Source of the DNA: an uncultured Acidimicrobiia bacterium
GTDB lineage: Bacteria; Actinomycetota; Acidimicrobiia; Acidimicrobiales; CAIXPF01
Assembly (NCBI GenBank): GCA_903921205.1
Contig: CAIXPF010000020.1
Location: forward strand, 18,775 to 82,774
Length of the DNA: 64,000 nt
Direction: 5' to 3'
The notes below the pieces were generated by a model. The model made no database searches. It was not told where the DNA came from and saw only the letters and a list, made by a program, of their open reading frames with translations. Below, in pieces: positions 35,074-45,400 of this stretch. The translations under genes were made by a program, and so were the position numbers. Each line of letters begins with the position of its first letter. Position 1 is the first letter of the stretch.

Positions 35074-36195
35074 TCATTCGATGATGCGGTAACGCAGCTG
35101 ACCCTCGACGGTGCGGGTGGTGGCCTTGCCGGTCTGGCGGAGGTACTCGAGGTGGGCGAAGGTCTCGCTGTCGGCCATCGGTCCCCACGAGTGCGGCTTG
35201 AACAGGTGCTTGGAGAACTCGGGCACCGTCATCTCGTTCTCGGGTGCGTGCACGGCGGCGTTGGTGAGGGTGTCGAAACGGCCCTGGTGATGGTCGAAGA
35301 TCTCCCGTGAGCGCCCGGCGAGGTCGTGGAACTCCAGGCCGTGGGCCGGCAGCACCGTGCGCACGTCGTCGATGGTGTACATCCGCTCGAGCGACAGCAG
35401 GAAGTCGCCCATCGGCCGTCGTTGTGTCGTGAGCCCCGAGATGTGAGGGGTGATCGTGGGCAGGAGGTGGTCGCCGGAGATGAACGTGCCGCCGACCGGA
35501 TCGAGCAGGCAGAGATGGTCGGCCGTGTGGCCGGGCGTGTGCACCGACACCCACTCGCGGTCGCCGAGGCTGAGCACCTGGCCGTCCACGACCCGGGTGG
35601 ACGGCTTCGGGGGCTGCCAGACCTTGCTCAGCAGCAGCGGCAGGACCCGCCACCTGAACCGGGCGCGCCACTCGTTGTCGGGTGGCGAGCCGCCCCACGG
35701 CACGGGCCGGTCCCAGGGCGAGTTCCGCTCCCGGCCGGTCACTTTCAGCAGGGAGCGTTCGATGGCGTTGAACTGCACCTCGTAGTCGGTGATCACGGCG
35801 ACCTCGTGGACGAGGTCGGACTCCTCGTGGGGATCCCAGTAGGTCTTGAAGTTGGCATGGGTGACCAGCTCGGCACCGGACACCTCGCGCACCCGCTGGG
35901 CTGCGCCGTAGTGGTCGGGATGGGAGTGGGTGACCACCACGGTGTGGACCCGCCGCATCGGCATGCCGACCTCGTCGAGCTTCTTGCGCAGCACCTGCCA
36001 CGAGCGCAGGCTCGGGGTGCCGGGATCGACCAGCGCCACCCCGTTGCGGTCCTCGATCACGTAGCAGTTCACGTGACCCAGACCGGGCATGTTCATCGGG
36101 AGCTGGATCCGCAGCACACCCGGGGCGACCTCTTTGACCTCGCTCTCCGGTGGCCGACGTTCCTCGCGTACCGGTGCAGTCATCTGGTCCCCCAT
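35074..36195 (-). CDS. MBL-fold metallo-hydrolase
   Basis: 373 aa. Motifs THSHPDHYG and TPGHTADH. Lies downstream of the P450 on the same strand. Confidence 0.8.
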   Translation of the reverse strand: MGDQMTAPVREERRPPESEVKEVAPGVLRIQLPMNMPGLGHVNCYVIEDRNGVALVDPGTPSLRSWQVLRKKLDEVGMPMRRVHTVVVTHSHPDHYGAAQRVREVSGAELVTHANFKTYWDPHEESDLVHEVAVITDYEVQFNAIERSLLKVTGRERNSPWDRPVPWGGSPPDNEWRARFRWRVLPLLLSKVWQPPKPSTRVVDGQVLSLGDREWVSVHTPGHTADHLCLLDPVGGTFISGDHLLPTITPHISGLTTQRRPMGDFLLSLERMYTIDDVRTVLPAHGLEFHDLAGRSREIFDHHQGRFDTLTNAAVHAPENEMTVPEFSKHLFKPHSWGPMADSETFAHLEYLRQTGKATTRTVEGQLRYRIIE

Positions 36196-36301: not shown

Positions 36302-37510
36302 TCAGGCCTGGTTCAGGATGCGTGCGGGAATCCGGCGCGGTCCCCGGACCTGGCCGGGGGCGAGCAGGATGGCGTCGGGGTCGCTCAGCTCGAAGTCCGG
36401 GTAGCGGGCCAGGAACTCCTCGACCGCCACGATCATCTCCATACGGGCCAGGTTGGAGCCGAGGCAACGGTGGATGCCCAGACCGAAGGCGGCATGGCGG
36501 TTGGCCTGCCGGTCGATGATCACCTCGTCGGGCCGGTCCACGACCTCGGGGTCGCGGTTGGCGGCCGGGAACCCCAGCAGGACCCATTCGCCGGCCGTGA
36601 TCGGGCGGCCGCCGATCTCGGTGTCGGCCTGGGCCACCCGGGCGACCCAGACCGGCGGGTAGAAGCGGAGGAACTCCTCGACCGCGGTGGGGATCAGCGC
36701 GGGCTCGGCCGCCAGCCGGTGACGGTCCTCGGCGTGGCCGGCGAGGTGCATCAGCGAGAATCCGATGCCCGACCAGGTGGTGTCGATGCCGGCGATCAGC
36801 AGCAGGAACAGCATGTTCAACAGCTCGCGATCGGGGATCGGCTGGTCATCGATCCGCTGGTCGAGCAGGAAGGTCACCAGGTCGTCGCCCGGCTCGGCCC
36901 GTCGCTGCTCGAGCAGCCCTCGCATGTAGTCCAGCATGACGTTGCTGGTGTCACGGGCCACGTCGATGTCGGTCGGGCCGACCTCGAGCAGGTCGTGCAG
37001 CCAGACCCGGAACTGCGGCACGTCGGCCAGGGGCACGCCCAGCATGATGGCGGTCAGCTCGGCCGGGATGACCTGGGCGTAGTCGACTGCGAGGTCGATG
37101 TCGGTGCGGTCGCCGATGGTGTCGAGTGCCCGGCGGCAGATTTCGCGGACCGGTTCCTCCCAGCGCTTGGTGGCGACGGGGTTGAAGAACGGCAGCATGA
37201 CCCGGCGCTTGGCGGTGTGGTCGGGCGGGTCGCTGTTGATCGGGGGCAGTGGCAGGCCGGGGTGGCTGGTGGGCAGCTCGTTGATCACGATGCGGCGGCT
37301 GCTGAACTGGGAGGGGTCCTGGGCGGCGGCGGCGACGTCCTCCCACCGGGTGAGTACGTTCATCCCGCCGTAGCGGTTGCTGTGCGCCACCGGGGCGTTG
37401 GTCCGCAACGCCGACCAGACCGAGTCGGGGTCGGCGATGAAGGCGGCGTCGAAGTGGTCGAAGTCGGTGCTCCAGTCCTCGACGGGTGTGCGGTCCTTGA
37501 GCTCGGCCAT
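36302..37510 (-). CDS. Cytochrome P450
   Basis: 402 aa. I-helix AGIDTT, EEFLRF (ExxR), and heme loop FGLGIHRCLG. SD AGGGGGA. Confidence 0.9.
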   Translation of the reverse strand: MAELKDRTPVEDWSTDFDHFDAAFIADPDSVWSALRTNAPVAHSNRYGGMNVLTRWEDVAAAAQDPSQFSSRRIVINELPTSHPGLPLPPINSDPPDHTAKRRVMLPFFNPVATKRWEEPVREICRRALDTIGDRTDIDLAVDYAQVIPAELTAIMLGVPLADVPQFRVWLHDLLEVGPTDIDVARDTSNVMLDYMRGLLEQRRAEPGDDLVTFLLDQRIDDQPIPDRELLNMLFLLLIAGIDTTWSGIGFSLMHLAGHAEDRHRLAAEPALIPTAVEEFLRFYPPVWVARVAQADTEIGGRPITAGEWVLLGFPAANRDPEVVDRPDEVIIDRQANRHAAFGLGIHRCLGSNLARMEMIVAVEEFLARYPDFELSDPDAILLAPGQVRGPRRIPARILNQA

Positions 37511-37635: not shown

Positions 37636-38649
37636 GTGGTGAGCGAGCGCGAGATCCGCAGCCGGCTCGAGTCCTTCCTGTGCGTCCGTCTCGGAGCTGC
37701 GGCGCGCCCTCGGATCGATGACGTGCATCGGGTTTCCGTCGGCCGCTCGCGTGAGAACTGGCTGTTCGACGCCACCTGGCTCGACGGCGGTACCGAGGTC
37801 CGTGAGTCGCTGATCGTGCGGCGTGATCCGCTCGGCGGGCTGCTCGAAACCGATCGGGCCGTCGAGTACGCCGTGCTGGCTGCGCTCCAGGCGACCCCGG
37901 TGCCCGCCCCGGCGGTGCGCTGGCTCGACGCGGACGGGGCCGAACTGGGTCGACCCTCCCTGGTGATGGTGCGTGAGCCGGGGGAGTGCGACTACTTCGT
38001 CCTCAACGGCGAGCGGCCGCTGGAGGACCGGGTGGCGCTGGCCCGCCGGCTGTGTGCGCTGCTGGTCGAGGTGCACCGGGCCGATTGGGCAGGGGCCGGC
38101 CTGGGCGACGTGTTCGGCGATCCCGGCCCCGAGGCGGCGACGGTGGAGCTTGCGGGCTGGGAGTCCATCCTTCGCCGCGATCAGCTCGAGCCGTACCCGG
38201 AACTGGAGCTGGCGTTGCGGGGTTTGCGGGCGACCGTGCCGCGCTCGCCGCGCACAGTCGTGGTCCACGGCGACTTCAAGGCGGGCAACGTGCTGCTGCG
38301 TGACGGCGAGCCGGGCACCTTGCTCGACTGGGAGTTGGCCCATCTCGGGGACCCGCACGAGGACCTCGGATGGATCACCCAGCCCCTGCGCACCCGGGAG
38401 CACCTCATCGCCGGCGCGTGGGAGCGTGACGACCTCCTGGCGTACTACGAGGAGCTGTCGGGGTGGGAGGTGGACCGCGACGCCGTGCGCTGGTGGAACG
38501 CCCTGGCCTGCTTCAAGACCGCGGTGATGCAGATCAGCGGCCTGCGTTCCTATGTCGAGGGTCGTTGCGACGAGCTCTACCAGCCCACCGCTGCGGTGCT
38601 CGGCACGTTGCTCGACCTCGTCGACGAGCTCACCGGGGCGCCGGCCTGA
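37636..38649 (+). CDS. APH-fold phosphotransferase, ACAD10/11-N-terminal/LvaA-like (kinase A)
   Basis: 337 aa. N-terminal strand VHRVSVGRSRENWLF, catalytic HGDFKAGNVLL, and LLDWE. Confidence 0.8.
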   Translation: MVSEREIRSRLESFLCVRLGAAARPRIDDVHRVSVGRSRENWLFDATWLDGGTEVRESLIVRRDPLGGLLETDRAVEYAVLAALQATPVPAPAVRWLDADGAELGRPSLVMVREPGECDYFVLNGERPLEDRVALARRLCALLVEVHRADWAGAGLGDVFGDPGPEAATVELAGWESILRRDQLEPYPELELALRGLRATVPRSPRTVVVHGDFKAGNVLLRDGEPGTLLDWELAHLGDPHEDLGWITQPLRTREHLIAGAWERDDLLAYYEELSGWEVDRDAVRWWNALACFKTAVMQISGLRSYVEGRCDELYQPTAAVLGTLLDLVDELTGAPA

Positions 38650-39110
38650 TGGAACCGACGGTCGCCGCGCAGTTACGGGCCATCCGACGCCTCGTCGACG
38701 AGGCCGCCGCCGACGCCGGGCTCGGTGATGGCGCCGCGCAGGCGTTGACGATGGCGTCGTCGCAGCTTCGCCGGCTCGAGGGGGCCGAGGCGGCGCGTCT
38801 GCCGTTCCTGGTCGAGGACAACCGCGCCACCGCAGCGTTGCTGGCCGAGTTGGCCGTCCTGGCGCCCGAGCTCGCGCCCCCTGCGCCGCCGTCGCCGGAC
38901 CCCGAAGCGGTGGTCTCCGAGGCCGATGCTGCCCGTCGTAACGTCGAATTGCGGGCGCTGCTCGCCCGCGCGGTCCACGTGCTGCCCGACGACGCTCCGG
39001 GCGACGCCGCCCGGGCGAGAGTGGTCGAGCTTCTCCGGGCCCGTCTGACCCGTAACCCGTCCCTCAACCGTCCACTGCGCCCCGGCGCCGAACGAACGGG
39101 AACCCCGTGA
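38649..39110 (+). CDS. Hypothetical helical protein, partner A of kinase A
   Basis: Track ORF 38463-39110 trimmed to ATG 38649, with a TGATG junction to the kinase. 153 aa. Alignable by eye with 41229-41657. Confidence 0.5.
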   Translation: MEPTVAAQLRAIRRLVDEAAADAGLGDGAAQALTMASSQLRRLEGAEAARLPFLVEDNRATAALLAELAVLAPELAPPAPPSPDPEAVVSEADAARRNVELRALLARAVHVLPDDAPGDAARARVVELLRARLTRNPSLNRPLRPGAERTGTP

Positions 39111-40255
39111 CCGACCATGACCCGATCCCGAAGCTGACCATGAGCGACGAGCACTTCGCCGAGCAGTTCCCGCTCTCGCCGCTCGACGACTACCTGATCC
39201 ACCAGACCCCCGACCCCATCCGGGTGATGTGGACCGGCGACCCCCGGGCCTACGAGCGCTACTGGATGGTCTGTCACGATCCCGCCGGTGAGGTGCTGGT
39301 CGCTGCGGGGGGCAGCTTCTATCCCAACCTCGATCGGGCCGAGGCCTATGCGATCGTCAACCACCGGGGTCAGCACACCTCGGTGCGGGGCTTTCGCCGG
39401 CTCGGCGCCGACCGGGCCGACCTGCGTATCGGACCGATCAACCCGCAGATCATCGCCGGCATGCGCTGGTGGCGCTACGAGCTCGAACCGAACGAGTGGG
39501 GGGTCAGCTTCCAGCTCGACTTCCGGGACACCACTCGCCAGGTGTTCCGCGAACCGCTGTCGAACTCCGCGGGCGGCAGCCCTCCCGGCCGCCGCAACGA
39601 CGTGACGACCGGCTTCGAGAGCTTCGGCGAGGTCGAGGGCTGGGTGCAGGTCGGCGACACCCGCATCGAGATCCCGGCCGGCTCGCCGGGCACCCGGGAC
39701 CGCCACTGGGGTGTCGGCCGTGGCGTCGGAGGCCCGGCGCTGTCGCTGGGCGGCCGGCTGCACGTTGGGGTGTCGGGCAACGCGTTCGTGGCCTTCCCGA
39801 GCTGGACCCTGTGGGGTGACCGGGTGTTCCACCGCTTCGGTGACCCTCGTCCCGGCATGGGCCGGGTGGGCAAGCCGTCGCGACGGTTGCGGTTCGAACC
39901 CGACACCAACATCTTCGTCGAGGGCATCGTCGACTACCCGCTCGACACCGGCGAGGTGAAGCAGGTCCACTACGAGCGCATCGGCTTCCAGACCGCCTAC
40001 CTGCGTTGCGGCATGTACGGGGGGACGCCGGACCGGGGCATCCACTCCGGGGGCTACGACGGTCCCGACCTCGTCGAGGGCGAGACCTACGACGTGACCC
40101 GTCCCGAGGTCCGCCGGGCCATCGCCGGCCTCGACGAGCACCTGTGCCGCGCCACCTGCGACGGAGAGGTGGCGACCGGGCTGTACCAGCCGATCGACCC
40201 GACCGCGTACGAGGCCTGCGCCGCCGGCAAGCCCGGTTGGGCCTTCCTCGAGTGA
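39107..40255 (+). CDS. Conserved-looking protein of unknown function (382 aa)
   Basis: GTGA overlaps at both ends. Coding-type G/C third positions. I recognise no catalytic motif. Notable strings are DDYLIHQTPDP and TRDRHWGVGRG. Confidence 0.6.
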   Translation: MTDHDPIPKLTMSDEHFAEQFPLSPLDDYLIHQTPDPIRVMWTGDPRAYERYWMVCHDPAGEVLVAAGGSFYPNLDRAEAYAIVNHRGQHTSVRGFRRLGADRADLRIGPINPQIIAGMRWWRYELEPNEWGVSFQLDFRDTTRQVFREPLSNSAGGSPPGRRNDVTTGFESFGEVEGWVQVGDTRIEIPAGSPGTRDRHWGVGRGVGGPALSLGGRLHVGVSGNAFVAFPSWTLWGDRVFHRFGDPRPGMGRVGKPSRRLRFEPDTNIFVEGIVDYPLDTGEVKQVHYERIGFQTAYLRCGMYGGTPDRGIHSGGYDGPDLVEGETYDVTRPEVRRAIAGLDEHLCRATCDGEVATGLYQPIDPTAYEACAAGKPGWAFLE

Positions 40256-41235
40256 ACGAGGTCCGGGCCGAGCCGCTCGCGGCGTTCCTCTCGGAGCAGG
40301 TGGGCAGTGCCGTCACCGTTGGCGAGTTGCAGCGGATCTCCTCGGTCGGCAACGCCCGCGAGCCGTGGCTGTTCCGCGCCTCGTGGGACGGTGGCGACGA
40401 ACGGTGCGTCATGCTCGTCAAGGCCGAGGCCGGTCAGCTCGAGACCACCCTCGGCCCCGAGTTCTCCACCATCGCCGCCCTCGACGGCAGCGGGGTGCCG
40501 GTGCCGCCGGCCCGCTGGCTCGACGAGGCCGGTGCGGCCTTCGGGTCGGCGTTCTTCGTGACGGCCTGGGTGCCCGGCACCGCCGACACCCGGGTGTTGC
40601 GCAAGCCGGAGGGCGATACGGCCATCGCCGCAGTGGCCCGGCAACTGGCGGTCGCAGCGGCGCGGCTGCACGCCCAGGACCCCGCCCGTTTCGGGCACCT
40701 GACACCGACCAGCCCCGAGACGGCTGCGTCCGATCAGCTCGACCACTGGGAGGAGCTGTTCCGCCGCCAACGGCTCGAGCCGCATCCGGGGTTGGTCTAC
40801 GCGCTGCGCTGGCTGCGCGAGCGACTGCCCCGGGCTGCGCGGGTATCCGTGGTCCACGGCGACCTGCGCTTCGGCAACCTGCTCTACGACGGTGATCGGT
40901 TGACCGCCCTGGTCGACTGGGAGATGGTCCACCTCGGTGACCCGGTCGAGGACCTGGGCTGGGTGTACCGCTCGCTGTGGTCGCCGGCACGGTCGCTGCC
41001 GTTCGAGGAGTTCCTTGCGGTGTACGCAGAGGAGGCGGGTCGTCCGGTGGATCGGGAGCACCTCCGCTGGTACGAGGTGTTCAACGAGGTCAAGCACAGC
41101 GTGATCTCGCTGACCGGCACCCGCAGCTTTGCCGACCGTGCCACCACCAGTCTGCGCCACGCCGACCGCTCGGCGACCGTCCCTCCGTTCGTGCGGCGGA
41201 TCCTGGAGCTGATCATGCAGGCCCCGTCATGTTGA
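40252..41235 (+). CDS. APH-fold phosphotransferase, ACAD10/11-N-terminal/LvaA-like (kinase B)
   Basis: Track ORF 40006-41235 trimmed to GTG 40252 (GTGA junction). Motifs LQRISSVGNAREPWLF, HGDLRFGNLLY and LVDWE. Confidence 0.8.
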   Translation: MNEVRAEPLAAFLSEQVGSAVTVGELQRISSVGNAREPWLFRASWDGGDERCVMLVKAEAGQLETTLGPEFSTIAALDGSGVPVPPARWLDEAGAAFGSAFFVTAWVPGTADTRVLRKPEGDTAIAAVARQLAVAAARLHAQDPARFGHLTPTSPETAASDQLDHWEELFRRQRLEPHPGLVYALRWLRERLPRAARVSVVHGDLRFGNLLYDGDRLTALVDWEMVHLGDPVEDLGWVYRSLWSPARSLPFEEFLAVYAEEAGRPVDREHLRWYEVFNEVKHSVISLTGTRSFADRATTSLRHADRSATVPPFVRRILELIMQAPSC

Positions 41236-41657
41236 ACCCGTCAGTGATCGACCTGTTGGTCGGCGTGGCCGACGGGCTGCGGGCCGAGGTGCTCGAGGTC
41301 CTCGAGCCGGGCCCGGCCCGGGACCAGGTCACCGCAGCTATCGCCATCGTGCGACGCGTGGCACGGGCCCTTCCCGGCCTGGTGCCCTACCTCCTGGCCG
41401 ACATCGACGACCTCCAGGCGACCCTTGCGCTGCTCGGTGTGCCCCCCGACGCGGCGGCGCCCCGGCCGGATCCGGGAACGGACGGCCTCGACGTGCTGAT
41501 CGCCTTCGACCTCACGCTGCGCGACCGCATCGCGGCGCTTGCCGAACCTGACGGAGCACTCGAGCTCGGTGCACCCGAGCGACGGATCCTGATCGACCTC
41601 CTGGGTCGGATGACCGAACGCGACGCCGGGTTGCGACTGTCGCCCTGGGAGCGCTGA
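41229..41657 (+). CDS. Hypothetical helical protein, partner B of kinase B
   Basis: Track ORF 40977-41657 trimmed to ATG 41229, with a 7-nt overlap onto the kinase. 142 aa. Paralogous by eye to 38649-39110. Confidence 0.5.
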   Translation: MLNPSVIDLLVGVADGLRAEVLEVLEPGPARDQVTAAIAIVRRVARALPGLVPYLLADIDDLQATLALLGVPPDAAAPRPDPGTDGLDVLIAFDLTLRDRIAALAEPDGALELGAPERRILIDLLGRMTERDAGLRLSPWER

Positions 41658-41796
41658 CCGACCGGTCCAAGACCTGCTCACCGGCCCTCTGACCGGCCGA
41701 TTCGGGGTCGCAACGGTGCCGCCGCACGGCAAGCTCGGCGCGAGGCCGCGCCACGGACTACCGTCACAGGGTCTGCATCGTCTCAGGGGGACGCAT

Positions 41797-42669
41797 TTGA
41801 AGTACTTCGCGCCGTCGACAGTGGAAGAAGCAGCGGGGTTGCTGGCCCAGCCGAACACCAAGGTGTTCGCCGGGGCCACCGACGTGATCCCGCAGATCCG
41901 GGCCGGCCGGCCCGAACCCGAAGCCTTGGTCGACCTCAAGAAGATCGACCGTCTGGTCTCCGTCCAGCGCACCGATGCCAAGTGGGTCATCGGTGCGGCC
42001 ACGCCCACCGCACGGCTGACCGGCAACGCCGAGCTCGCCGCCGAGTTCCCCGGCCTGGTCGAGGCCGCCGGCCTCATCGGTTCCGATCAGGTGCAGAGCC
42101 GGTCGAGCCTGGGCGGCAACCTGTGCAACGCCTCGCCTGCAGCCGACTCGGTGCCGGCCATGGTCGTCAACGGCGTCCGTGCCGTGATCGCCACCCCCGG
42201 TGGGGGCACGCGCACCCTGGCGGTCGAGGACGTGCCGGCCGGTCCTGGCCGGACCAACCTCGTTCCCGGCGAGTTCGTGGTCGAGCTCGAGGTCGACCGT
42301 GCCCCGGCACGCACCGGCGACGCCTACCTGCGGCTCATCCCGCGTACCGAGATGGACATCGCCGTCGTCGGCGCCGGCGTCCGGGTCACCCTCGACGAGT
42401 CCGGCACCGTCACCGACGCCCGCGTGGCGCTCGGCGCCGTCGCCCCGACCGTCGTGCGGGTGCAGGCCGCCGAGGCCGCGCTGATCGGCAGCAAGCTCGA
42501 CGACGCGGCCCTTGCTGCGGCCGCTGCCGCGGCGAGCGCCGCCTGCAACCCCATCGACGACAAGCGGGGCACCATCGCCTACCGCACCCACGTCGCCGGT
42601 GTCCTCACCCGCCGTGCGGCGGTCATCGCCGGCCAGCGTGCCGCCGAGAAGAACGGAGCTTCCCGATGA
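41797..42669 (+). CDS. Molybdenum hydroxylase FAD-binding (medium) subunit
   Basis: Track ORF 41716-42669 trimmed to TTG 41797 with GGGGGA 5-6 nt upstream. Motifs FAGATDVIPQIR, GGNLCNASPAADS and DDKRGTIAYR. Confidence 0.8.
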   Translation: MKYFAPSTVEEAAGLLAQPNTKVFAGATDVIPQIRAGRPEPEALVDLKKIDRLVSVQRTDAKWVIGAATPTARLTGNAELAAEFPGLVEAAGLIGSDQVQSRSSLGGNLCNASPAADSVPAMVVNGVRAVIATPGGGTRTLAVEDVPAGPGRTNLVPGEFVVELEVDRAPARTGDAYLRLIPRTEMDIAVVGAGVRVTLDESGTVTDARVALGAVAPTVVRVQAAEAALIGSKLDDAALAAAAAAASAACNPIDDKRGTIAYRTHVAGVLTRRAAVIAGQRAAEKNGASR

Positions 42670-43148
42670 GCCGGATCCAAGTGAGCTGCACCGTCAACGG
42701 TGACCCGGTCGACTTCCTCTGCGACGCCGACGGCTCGCTGCTCAACACCTTGCGTGACGAGCTCGGCCTCACCGGCATCAAGGAAGGCTGCGGAACCGGC
42801 GACTGCGGCGCCTGCTCGATCCTCATGGACGACCAGCTGCACTGCGCCTGCCTGATCTTCGCCCCCGAGGCCACCGGGACGACCATCACCACCGTCGAAG
42901 GCCTTGCCGACGGCGATCACCTGACCCCGCTGCAGGAATGCTTCCTCGAGGGTGCCGCCCTCCAGTGCGGCATCTGCACCCCCGGGTTCCTGGTGGCCGC
43001 CACGGCCCTTCTCAAGCACAACCCCAACCCCACCGAGACCGAAATCCGTTACGCACTGGCAGGGAACCTCTGCCGTTGCACCGGCTACGACAAGATCGTG
43101 CGTGCTGTCCGTGAGGCGGCCGCGCAGATGAGGGAGGCGTCAGCATGA
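42666..43148 (+). CDS. Molybdenum hydroxylase (2Fe-2S)-binding small subunit
   Basis: ATGA junction. 160 aa. Motifs CGTGDCGACS, CGICTPG and CRCTGY. Confidence 0.9.
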   Translation: MSRIQVSCTVNGDPVDFLCDADGSLLNTLRDELGLTGIKEGCGTGDCGACSILMDDQLHCACLIFAPEATGTTITTVEGLADGDHLTPLQECFLEGAALQCGICTPGFLVAATALLKHNPNPTETEIRYALAGNLCRCTGYDKIVRAVREAAAQMREASA

Positions 43149-45400
43149 CCATCGCAGAAGATCCGGCAACCACCTCACCCGGCTACAAGTGGGTCGGCAC
43201 CCGGATGATCCGGCCCGACGGCTTCGAGAAGGTCACCGGGCGTGCCCGCTTCGGTGCCGACATCAAGCTCAACGGGATGCTCTACGGCCACGTGCTGCGC
43301 TCGCCGCACGCCCACGCCAAGATCGTGTCGATCGACACCAGCGAGGCCGAGAAGATGGCGGGCGTGCGCGCGGTCATCACCGGTGCGGACTTCCCCGATC
43401 CCTCCGGCCCCGCCGGCGATCAGGACCTGCAGCGCAACGTCATCGCCCGTGAGAAGGCCCTCTACGAAGGCCACGTGATCGCTGCGGTCGCAGCGCAGAC
43501 CCGTGCCCAGGCCAAGGCCGCGGCCGAGGCCATCAAGGTGGTCTACGAGGTCCTCCCGCACGTGATGACCGTCGACGAGGCCATGGCCCCCGGTGCGCCG
43601 TTGCTGCACCCGAAGCTGATGACCAAGGGCGTCGATCCCGCCCCCACCGAGCCGTCGAACGTGGCGAGCCGTGCGGTGTACCAGGGCGGCGACCTCGACC
43701 TCGGCTTCGCCGAGTCCGACGTGGTCGTCGAGGGGACCTTCACCACCAAGCCGGTGCACCAGGGCTACATCGAGCCCCACGCCGCGGTGGCCGACACCAC
43801 CCCCAACGGCCGCACCACGCTGTGGTGCTCGTCGCAGGGCCACTTCACGATGCGGTCGCTGTCGGCCAAGGTGCTGGGCTGGGAGCCCTCCAAGCTGAAG
43901 GTCATCCCTGCCGAGATCGGCGGCGGCTTCGGTGGCAAGACCACCATCTACCTCGAGCCTCTCGCCGTGCGCCTGTCGCAGAAGGCGGGCCGGCCGGTGA
44001 AGCTGGTCATGAGCCGTGACGAGGTGTTCCGGGCCACCGGTCCGGCCTCGGGCACCAAGATCGTCGGCAAGTTGGGCTTCAAGAACGACGGCACCATGGT
44101 TGCCGGCGAGCTGTGGATGGCCTACGAGGCTGGTGCCTTCGCCGGTTCGCCGGCCGGTGCCGGCTCGATGACCGCGCTGGCCCCCTACACCGTGCCGAAC
44201 TTCCTCATCGAGGGCTTCGACGTGGTGGTCAACAAGCCCAAGGTCGCGGCCTACCGCGCTCCGGGCGCCCCGATGTCGTCCTTCGCCGTGGAGAGCCTCA
44301 TCGACGAGGCCGCCAAGAAGCTCGGCATGGACCCGATCGACATCCGGCTCAAGAACGCCGTGACCGAGGGTTGCCAGGCCACGTATGGTCCGAAGTTCCC
44401 GCGGATCGGCTTCGTGGAGACCCTCGAGGCCATCAAGAACCACCCGAACTACAAGATCCCGCTCGGCCCCAACCAGGGTCGCGGCGTGGCATCGGGCTTC
44501 TGGTTCAACGCCGGTCTCAACTCCAGCGCCACGGTGCACGTGAACGAGGACGGCAACGTCATCGTCGTCACCGGCTCGCCCGACATCGGTGGCAGCCGCG
44601 CCTCGATGGCCCTGATGGCCGCCGAGGAGTTCGGCATCGACGCCGCCCGGATCCAGCCGGTCGTCGGCGACACCGAGTCGGTCGGCTACAACGACCAGAC
44701 CGGTGGTAGCCGGACGACCCTGGCCACCGGTGCCGCGGTCATCGAGGCCTGCCGCAAGGTGATCGCCGATCTGCGTGGCCGCGCGGCCAAGCAGTGGGAC
44801 GTGTCGCTCGACAAGGTCGAGTGGGTCGACGGTCAGGCCCAGCACGTGGAGGGCACCCAGCCCCCGCTGTCGCTCGCCGATCTGGCCAAGGGTTGGAACC
44901 GTACCGGTGGCCCGCTGACCGCCAGCGCGGCCCTCAACGCCCGCGGCGTCGGCTCGGCGTTCTCGACCCAGGTCGTCGACCTCGAGGTCGATCCCGACAC
45001 CGGCCATGTGACGGTGCTGCGCTACCTCACCGCCCAGGACGCCGGTCGGGCCATCCACCCGAGCTACGTCGAGGGCCAGCTGCAGGGCGGCGTCGTGCAG
45101 GGCCTCGGCTGGGCGCTGAACGAGGAGTACATCTTCGACCGCAACGGCAAGATGGAGAACCCCGGCTTCCTCGACTACCGCATCCCGGTGGCGTCGGACC
45201 TGCCGATGATCGACACGATCGTCGTCGAGGTCCCCAACCCCGGTCACCCCTACGGCGTGCGTGGGGTGGGCGAGGTCGGCATCGTCCCGCCGTTGGCCGC
45301 CGTGGCCAACGCCGTCGACGACGCCGTCAGCCGTCGTATCCACGACCTGCCGCTGTCGCCGGTGCGCATCCTCGACGCCATCATCAACAAGGACAGCTGA
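43145..45400 (+). CDS. Molybdopterin-binding large subunit of a xanthine-dehydrogenase/aldehyde-oxidase-family hydroxylase
   Basis: 751 aa with an ATGA junction. Motifs GRARFGADI, AAYRAPGAP and the catalytic-Glu context RGVGEVGIVP. It lacks the AYRCSFR/AYRGAGR loop of CO dehydrogenases. Confidence 0.9.
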   Translation: MTIAEDPATTSPGYKWVGTRMIRPDGFEKVTGRARFGADIKLNGMLYGHVLRSPHAHAKIVSIDTSEAEKMAGVRAVITGADFPDPSGPAGDQDLQRNVIAREKALYEGHVIAAVAAQTRAQAKAAAEAIKVVYEVLPHVMTVDEAMAPGAPLLHPKLMTKGVDPAPTEPSNVASRAVYQGGDLDLGFAESDVVVEGTFTTKPVHQGYIEPHAAVADTTPNGRTTLWCSSQGHFTMRSLSAKVLGWEPSKLKVIPAEIGGGFGGKTTIYLEPLAVRLSQKAGRPVKLVMSRDEVFRATGPASGTKIVGKLGFKNDGTMVAGELWMAYEAGAFAGSPAGAGSMTALAPYTVPNFLIEGFDVVVNKPKVAAYRAPGAPMSSFAVESLIDEAAKKLGMDPIDIRLKNAVTEGCQATYGPKFPRIGFVETLEAIKNHPNYKIPLGPNQGRGVASGFWFNAGLNSSATVHVNEDGNVIVVTGSPDIGGSRASMALMAAEEFGIDAARIQPVVGDTESVGYNDQTGGSRTTLATGAAVIEACRKVIADLRGRAAKQWDVSLDKVEWVDGQAQHVEGTQPPLSLADLAKGWNRTGGPLTASAALNARGVGSAFSTQVVDLEVDPDTGHVTVLRYLTAQDAGRAIHPSYVEGQLQGGVVQGLGWALNEEYIFDRNGKMENPGFLDYRIPVASDLPMIDTIVVEVPNPGHPYGVRGVGEVGIVPPLAAVANAVDDAVSRRIHDLPLSPVRILDAIINKDS

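Follow-up and report, generated by a model that had tools for sequence, protein, structure and literature searches.

What is the function of a protein of 382 residues that matches nothing in Pfam and is encoded, with reading frames overlapping at both ends, among genes for small-molecule kinases? The question is raised by one gene of the window analysed here, a stretch of 64,000 nucleotides from contig CAIXPF010000020.1 of an uncultured Acidimicrobiia bacterium (assembly GCA_903921205.1). With a probability of roughly 0.7, judged from its sequence, its modelled fold and its gene neighbourhood, we take the protein to be a kinase-coupled, phosphate-eliminating C–O lyase, and the most likely role of this protein and the neighbouring kinases together is that of a module for ATP-driven dehydration. 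The gene in question is:

39107..40255, + strand: Rv3169-family protein, putative phosphate-eliminating C–O lyase; 382 residues, all-beta, homologue of the 25-phosphosteroid lyase (25-PSL)

That the gene is real and translated, as an earlier note on this DNA had proposed from its third-position bias and its overlaps, is borne out. The open reading frame (ORF) runs from a GTG at 39107 to a TGA at 40253-40255; its guanine-plus-cytosine (GC) fractions by codon position, taken over the stop-to-stop frame, are 0.69/0.52/0.91, as in the genes of the window (window GC 70.8%), and the frame plot switches cleanly at either border. In the DNA itself, a GTGA at 39107-39110 places the stop of a 153-residue upstream ORF on the GTG start of the gene, and a second GTGA at 40252-40255 places its TGA on the GTG start of the kinase that follows; these overlaps indicate translational coupling of the gene with its neighbours. 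The frame is far from a chance ORF, because the protein has 686 homologues at an expect value (E) <= 1e-5, and its homologues form 899 clusters at 50% identity (E <= 1e-3). The true start is probably GTG 39107, which is favoured by the conservation of residues 10-11 (LT) and 14-21 in the homologues, while ATG 39140 may be an alternative.

Whether the protein can be assigned to a family depends on where one looks. The earlier note could name none, and for Pfam this holds, no match being found at E 0.01 or even at E 10. It does not hold for NCBIfam and the PDB. On the NCBIfam model of the Rv3169 family (NF053593; curated cut-off 150 bits) the protein scores 290.9 bits (E 1.2e-86), with residues 23-362 spanning model positions 1-348 of 351. 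A phmmer search of the PDB returns only the entries of 25-PSL from Sterolibacterium denitrificans (9fzn, 9g2i and 9g4c, released in January 2026), of which 9fzn matches best, with an E of 4.9e-21 and residues 21-359 (339 of the 382) aligned to positions 3-348 of 362. Since 25-PSL, with its sequence taken from the PDB alignment, itself reaches 388 bits on NF053593, both proteins exceed the cut-off and stand in one curated family. The characterised enzyme that it matches acts on a phospho-intermediate and is not of a family unrelated to such compounds: the substrate of 25-PSL is 25-phospho-cholesta-1,4-dien-3-one, from which phosphate is eliminated to give an alkene.

This functional link between the Rv3169 family and 25-PSL is not yet in annotation. 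The source names among the homologues are all “hypothetical” or “DUF2804”, and our literature search on Rv3169 found no functional study, the only useful fact being that Rv3168 and Rv3169 form an operon under Rv3167c. The link offers a testable function for a family known at NCBI just as “Rv3169 family”, after an uncharacterised ORF of Mycobacterium tuberculosis. 25-PSL and the family paralogues in the genome of the window give weak or partial matches to Pfam DUF7065/DUF7064; the 382-residue protein has the general two-barrel architecture in common with DUF7065/DUF7064 proteins, and differs from them in having no Pfam match at all.

The modelled fold points the same way. The AlphaFold model (80 homologues; predicted local distance difference test score, pLDDT, 85.4; predicted template modelling score, pTM, 0.88) is almost entirely beta, as the earlier note had supposed from the composition, and a Foldseek search of the PDB with this model, the check that the note had recommended, places 9fzn, 9g4c and 9g2i first, with E 1e-22 and template modelling (TM) scores of 0.71-0.75. 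Among these is the product complex of 25-PSL with phosphate and desmosta-1,4-dien-3-one (9g4c). The folds that follow are those of Fsa2, Phm7, CghA and kievitone hydratase, at E 1e-6 to 1e-4. Their appearance in the list, and the deep, separate clade to which the protein belongs (see below), would suit a protein that has kept the fold for some other chemistry, that is, a hydratase, isomerase, cyclase or pericyclase working on a hydrophobic substrate without a phospho-intermediate, in the manner of kievitone hydratase, the CrtC/AttH-type hydratases or the Fsa2/Phm7/CghA Diels-Alderases, with the kinases serving another step. We consider this quite unlikely. Those double-barrel enzymes, which use no phospho-intermediate, share with the model only a general architecture (TM 0.35-0.5, about 0.4, at 8-11% identity), as against the TM scores and full-length sequence match of 25-PSL, and the residues held in common with 25-PSL include Arg, His and Asp positions of the kind expected for phosphate handling.

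Which residues these are can be read from an alignment of 54 diverse family members with a mean identity of 25%. All 4 invariant and all 16 near-invariant (>= 90%) columns are retained in the 382-residue protein: D27, H32, Q33, D45, R51, Y72, P73, N74, G109, P110, G174, G178, R197, D198, W201, G202, R204, G282, Y304 and G315. The motifs LDDYxxHQ, YxRY, YPN and RDRxWG (also G(S/T)RDRxWG) align between the protein and 25-PSL, and GP is likewise common to both; the strings DDYLIHQTPDP, YERYWM and TRDRHWGVGRG, which the earlier note had picked out as conspicuous, all occur in the translation and prove to be conserved motifs of the family. A beta-barrel with distant lipocalin-like matches, located between two kinase modules, might alternatively have no catalytic activity and serve as a binding protein, carrier or scaffold, either offering a hydrophobic substrate to the kinases or regulating them, but we regard this as very unlikely: D27, H32, D45, R51, R197, D198 and R204 are strictly conserved at that low mean identity, a pattern that active sites typically show and that a proven enzyme shares, and the accessory role is already taken by a small helical protein described below.

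If the protein is the eliminating enzyme that its relatives suggest, the reaction would proceed in two steps. In the first, a kinase (kinase A, probably with its helical partner) would move the gamma-phosphate of ATP onto an unactivated alcohol of the substrate; the second kinase and its partner would perhaps also act, on another hydroxyl or on a different substrate. In the second step, the two-barrel beta protein would bind the phospho-ester and eliminate inorganic phosphate, leaving a C=C double bond. Candidate acid/base residues are D27, H32 and D198, and candidate phosphate ligands are R51, R197 and R204. The phospho-lyase reading, which the earlier note had offered as pure conjecture, is thus supported because the sole characterised and solved relative is 25-PSL, and because kinase A resembles the kinase that acts before 25-PSL; the homology, the fold and the shared family all favour it.

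Homology and gene order by themselves require only that the substrate be a kinase product, and so would also accommodate a phosphatase, a phosphomutase, or a transferase or cyclase that displaces the phosphate by substitution, with formation of a lactone or ring. A carbocation left by the departing phosphate could be trapped by a nucleophile instead of losing a proton, and genes for a PF04199 “Cyclase” and a CoA-transferase lie near the module in relatives. Against this, the sole characterised member eliminates phosphate to an alkene, with its product complex solved (9g4c), a kinase paired with a phosphatase would be futile and wasteful, and substitution chemistry is without precedent in the Rv3169 family, so that we hold such a non-eliminating action to be unlikely. 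Elimination remains the reading that we follow below.

The kinases and their small partners are encoded around the putative lyase gene as follows:

37636..38649, + strand: kinase A, APH-fold small-molecule kinase, 337 residues, putative start GTG 37636 (Pfam APH, E 2.4e-26)
38649..39110, + strand: helical partner A, 153 residues, conserved; TGATG overlap with kinase A and GTGA overlap with the putative lyase gene
40252..41235, + strand: kinase B, APH-fold kinase, 327 residues, start GTG 40252 (Pfam APH, E 2.8e-29)
41229..41657, + strand: helical partner B, 142 residues, paralogue of partner A; its ATG 41229 overlaps the stop of kinase B

The earlier description of the gene as locked between two kinase modules is therefore right on one side, where kinase B overlaps it, and not on the other, where kinase A is separated from it by the 153-residue helical protein (38649-39110). 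The small ORFs after each kinase, which that description passed over, are conserved partners of the kinases. The full order is kinase A, partner A, the 382-residue protein, kinase B, partner B, a molybdenum hydroxylase (Mo-hydroxylase) of three subunits, and a thiolase.

Both kinases keep the HGDxxxxN loop and the DWE catalytic motifs intact, and the motifs are invariant in the alignment. By sequence, the top PDB match of kinase A is 9fsg, the 25-hydroxysteroid kinase (25-HSK), at E 3.7e-16; its AlphaFold model (pLDDT 94.5) likewise finds 25-HSK first in Foldseek (9fsg/9ft5, E 8.8e-20, TM 0.75), followed by Rv3168 (3ats) and Reut_A1007 (3dxp). Kinase B, about 35-37% identical to kinase A, matches 3dxp, 9o56, 3ats (Rv3168) and the kinase domain of ACAD11, and lies 3' of the putative lyase gene in only a subset of the 37 related loci described below. 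The window kinases match 3ats at an E of about 1e-11 by sequence and 1.5e-18 in Foldseek. Kinase A probably makes the phospho-ester on which the putative lyase would act. These assignments give a testable role to kinases that are annotated as aminoglycoside phosphotransferases.

The kinases also match, at E 1e-3 to 3e-11, the NCBIfam models of LxmK and of LanL kinase domains, which would recall a lanthipeptide-like dehydration by a kinase and a phospho-Ser/Thr lyase acting on a ribosomal peptide. The matches are weak and lie far under the cut-offs, the barrel protein does not resemble lanthipeptide lyases, the operon lacks the precursor peptide, cyclase and transporter of such a system, and the neighbours are catabolic (a cytochrome P450, the Mo-hydroxylase, a thiolase and CoA-transferases); with matches of this quality and no peptide machinery, we have rejected this explanation as having next to no likelihood.

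How regularly the putative lyase and the kinases occur together can be judged from two sets of loci. In the close set, 37 related loci from GTDB genomes at 66-98% identity, mostly of Acidimicrobiia, an APH kinase adjoins the putative lyase gene on the same strand in 32, and the remaining five end at a contig edge upstream. The distant set comprises 30 loci (L041-L070) of Actinomycetota, a phylum in which the Rv3169 family exceeds the cut-off in 44 of 301 genomes, often in several copies; an APH kinase was sought here within 1.5 kb of available flank and was found at 20. The genome of the window contains 16 APH matches in 4.36 Mb, so that a kinase would adjoin by chance in only about 1% of cases. 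Homologues therefore mostly do have an adjoining kinase, where the earlier note had left open that they might mostly lack one, and the pairing is seen at related loci across Actinomycetota and beyond. Within the clade of the 382-residue protein, practically every locus has a kinase next to the gene, with translational coupling between the two, which again speaks against a protein with some other chemistry whose neighbouring kinases serve a different step. In the same genome, a weak family member of the DUF7065/DUF7064 type (C53:14111-14470) lies directly downstream of another APH kinase.

Several observations weigh against a kinase-coupled lyase and have to be set beside this. Ten of the 30 distant loci have no kinase within 1.5 kb, as a fold with other chemistry would allow, and the same is true of the best-scoring paralogue in the genome of the window itself (C122:28867-29991), a canonical Rv3169-type protein at 345 bits. 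The kinase and lyase genes of Sterolibacterium are unlinked. The N-terminal segment with H32 and Q33 is modelled poorly (pLDDT < 50 at residues 31-35), and conservation of the active site in the 382-residue protein is read from conservation at the level of the family only. Finally, the protein is 24-28% identical to 25-PSL and stands in a separate, long-stemmed clade, so its function could have drifted. In the maximum-likelihood tree this clade has 11 members, a support of 100/100 and a stem length of 1.0, while the 43 other representatives, including 25-PSL and the C122 paralogue, fall outside it. Orthology with 25-PSL was accordingly rejected.

What the protein would be, then, judging from sequence and model, is a divergent relative within the known 25-HSK/25-PSL type of ATP-dependent dehydration, which probably shares the chemistry of 25-PSL and probably does not share its substrate. 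For 25-hydroxysteroids, a route by kinase and lyase is established (PMC7411048, PMC8449060); in Sterolibacterium, where the two genes lie apart, the authors stated in 2021 that the surroundings of the kinase gene held no candidate for the lyase. The window resembles that system in the NF053593 family, in the two-barrel fold, in the motifs given above (the first of them, DDYxxHQ, included) and in a predicted action after an APH-fold kinase, which is 25-HSK there. It differs in that the 382-residue protein is shorter in its central segment, carries an additional tail at the C-terminus (...IDPTAYEACAAGKPGWAFLE), reads RDRHWG where 25-PSL has RDRSWG, is encoded by a gene translationally coupled to a kinase, and belongs to an Acidimicrobiia host without KshA, with relatives in neighbourhoods rich in enzymes of coenzyme A (CoA) thioesters. 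Dehydration at the expense of ATP, by phosphorylation of an alcohol and subsequent elimination of the phosphate, had been reported from a single betaproteobacterium, as a peculiarity of its anaerobic breakdown of cholesterol; the window would hold a divergent form of the same enzyme pair within a translationally coupled operon of an Acidimicrobiia genome. To this the analysis adds a helical partner that accompanies the kinase, at some loci as a fusion, and a distinct clade in a CoA-thioester context.

A second comparison is with M. tuberculosis, in which Rv3168 (APH; 3ats/3att) and Rv3169 form a single operon repressed by the TetR regulator Rv3167c (PMC5340868). The order of an APH-fold kinase followed by an Rv3169-family protein is the same in the window. 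The mycobacterial type, however, falls in the main branch of the family, and no regulator like Rv3167c adjoins the module of the window.

The helical partner deserves closer description. Partner proteins of about 140-165 residues are conserved in Acidimicrobiia, Amycolatopsis, Rhodococcus and Dormibacteria, and are built from an N-terminal block, M(H/R)PTxxEQL...LRRL...LPFLxxDN, a variable Pro/Ala linker and a C-terminal block, NxxLRxLL...ARxRIxxHLRxR. Neither a Pfam search with 20 members nor a profile search of the PDB found a relative. The pairwise similarity of partners A and B is weak, and the partner profile matches partner B at 6.3e-29. In profile searches the partner goes with the kinase wherever the latter lies, even on the downstream side of the putative lyase gene (L027, L028 and L033); a gene of the partner B type follows kinase B in L001, L002, L005, L007, L009, L031 and L036; and at several loci, L004, L006 and L008 among them, kinase and partner form one in-frame ORF of about 500-530 residues, with the partner at the C-terminal end. 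Three of these are:

L004:4343-5929: kinase-partner ORF, in-frame fusion
L006:4440-5930: kinase-partner ORF, in-frame fusion
L008:4336-5928: kinase-partner ORF, in-frame fusion

Because the partner follows the kinase everywhere and is sometimes fused to it, we read it as a likely new subunit or domain of the kinase, with a role that, by analogy, would be like that of LvaB; an unannotated protein thus also receives a testable role. The partner gene, present in the window, was not found by profile search at the 30 sampled distant loci of Actinomycetota, a set that excludes the M. tuberculosis locus.

The analogy is drawn from Pseudomonas putida, whose APH-type kinase LvaA needs the 12-kDa partner LvaB for phosphorylation of 4-hydroxyvaleryl-CoA (PMC6692424). 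The window, together with its relatives, resembles LvaA/LvaB/LvaC and mammalian ACAD10 and ACAD11 in an APH-fold kinase, in a small co-encoded protein that may correspond to LvaB in role, and in a probable CoA-thioester context; the window kinases match the ACAD11 kinase domain and 3dxp, and elimination to an enoyl product would be a further likeness. The difference lies in the eliminating enzyme: phosphate is removed there by a flavin enzyme of the ACAD type, whereas the window has the beta-barrel protein in that place, and no ACAD gene, of the LvaC type or any other, is present in the operon from 37636 to 45400. If the substrate is a hydroxy acid or its acyl-CoA, the protein would, on this analogy, take the role of LvaC or of the ACAD10/11 domain in the catabolism of 4-hydroxy acids, and the module would solve the 4-hydroxy-acid problem in a second way, independently of flavin. 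In a broader and distinctly tentative form of the same idea, which we think somewhat improbable as a whole, kinase, helical partner and barrel lyase of this clade would make up a flavin-free, three-component machine that strips unactivated hydroxyl groups from hydroxy-acyl-CoA thioesters, for example those of opened lactones, as an alternative to LvaC and ACAD10/11 with a wide distribution among aerobic Actinomycetota and phyla related to them, the partner either recognising the CoA substrate or passing the labile phospho-ester to the lyase.

Which substrate, then, is to be expected? A steroid was rejected as likely, since the genome of the window has no match to the KshA_C domain, a marker of the aerobic 9,10-seco steroid pathway, and since the protein is not an ortholog of 25-PSL. 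Clusters resembling those of beta-oxidation are numerous in the window, yet the genome is without that KshA_C match. In Amycolatopsis, Rhodococcus, Dormibacteria and Solirubrobacteraceae, the module adjoins genes for an acyl-CoA synthetase, the PF04199 “cyclase” and a CoA-transferase (AcetylCoA_hyd_C), and often lies near an ACAD, an enoyl-CoA hydratase, thiolase/DUF35 genes and an FMO-like monooxygenase. Four such loci are:

L071:4932-11131: kinase-partner-lyase module in a CoA-thioester context
L072:4874-11140: kinase-partner-lyase module in a CoA-thioester context
L073:1664-10440: kinase-partner-lyase module in a CoA-thioester context
L074:6994-10402: kinase-partner-lyase module in a CoA-thioester context

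These neighbourhoods suggest a pathway for hydroxy acids or lactones, and, given that the protein is a phosphate-eliminating lyase, the odds are roughly even that the substrate is a hydroxylated acid or acyl-CoA.

The remaining neighbours in the window are oxidative enzymes and one protein of context:

35074-36195, − strand: protein with the metallo-beta-lactamase (MBL) fold, after the cytochrome P450; context
36302..37510, − strand: cytochrome P450, divergent from the module (Pfam p450)
41716..45400, + strand: Mo-hydroxylase of the xanthine oxidase family (CoxMSL type), three subunits (Pfam)
41716-42669, + strand: Mo-hydroxylase, flavin adenine dinucleotide (FAD) subunit
42666-43148, + strand: Mo-hydroxylase, 2Fe-2S subunit
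43145-45400, + strand: Mo-hydroxylase, Mo subunit

The top PDB matches of the P450 are P450cin, CYP143, CYP125 and the vitamin D3 25-hydroxylase, and L027 and L028 have a homologue at 35-36% identity close to the module; this enzyme could be the source of the hydroxyl group on the substrate. The Mo-hydroxylase, recognised by the Pfam domains FAD_binding_5 and CO_deh_flav_C, Fer2 and Fer2_2, and MoCoBD_1, MoCoBD_2 and Ald_Xan_dh_C, could act on the product of the lyase. Its large subunit scores best on the models of the 4-hydroxybenzoyl-CoA reductase alpha subunit and XdhA, both under their cut-offs, and among the 37 loci the enzyme is encoded beside the module at none but those of the closest relatives (L001, L002, L003 and L005).

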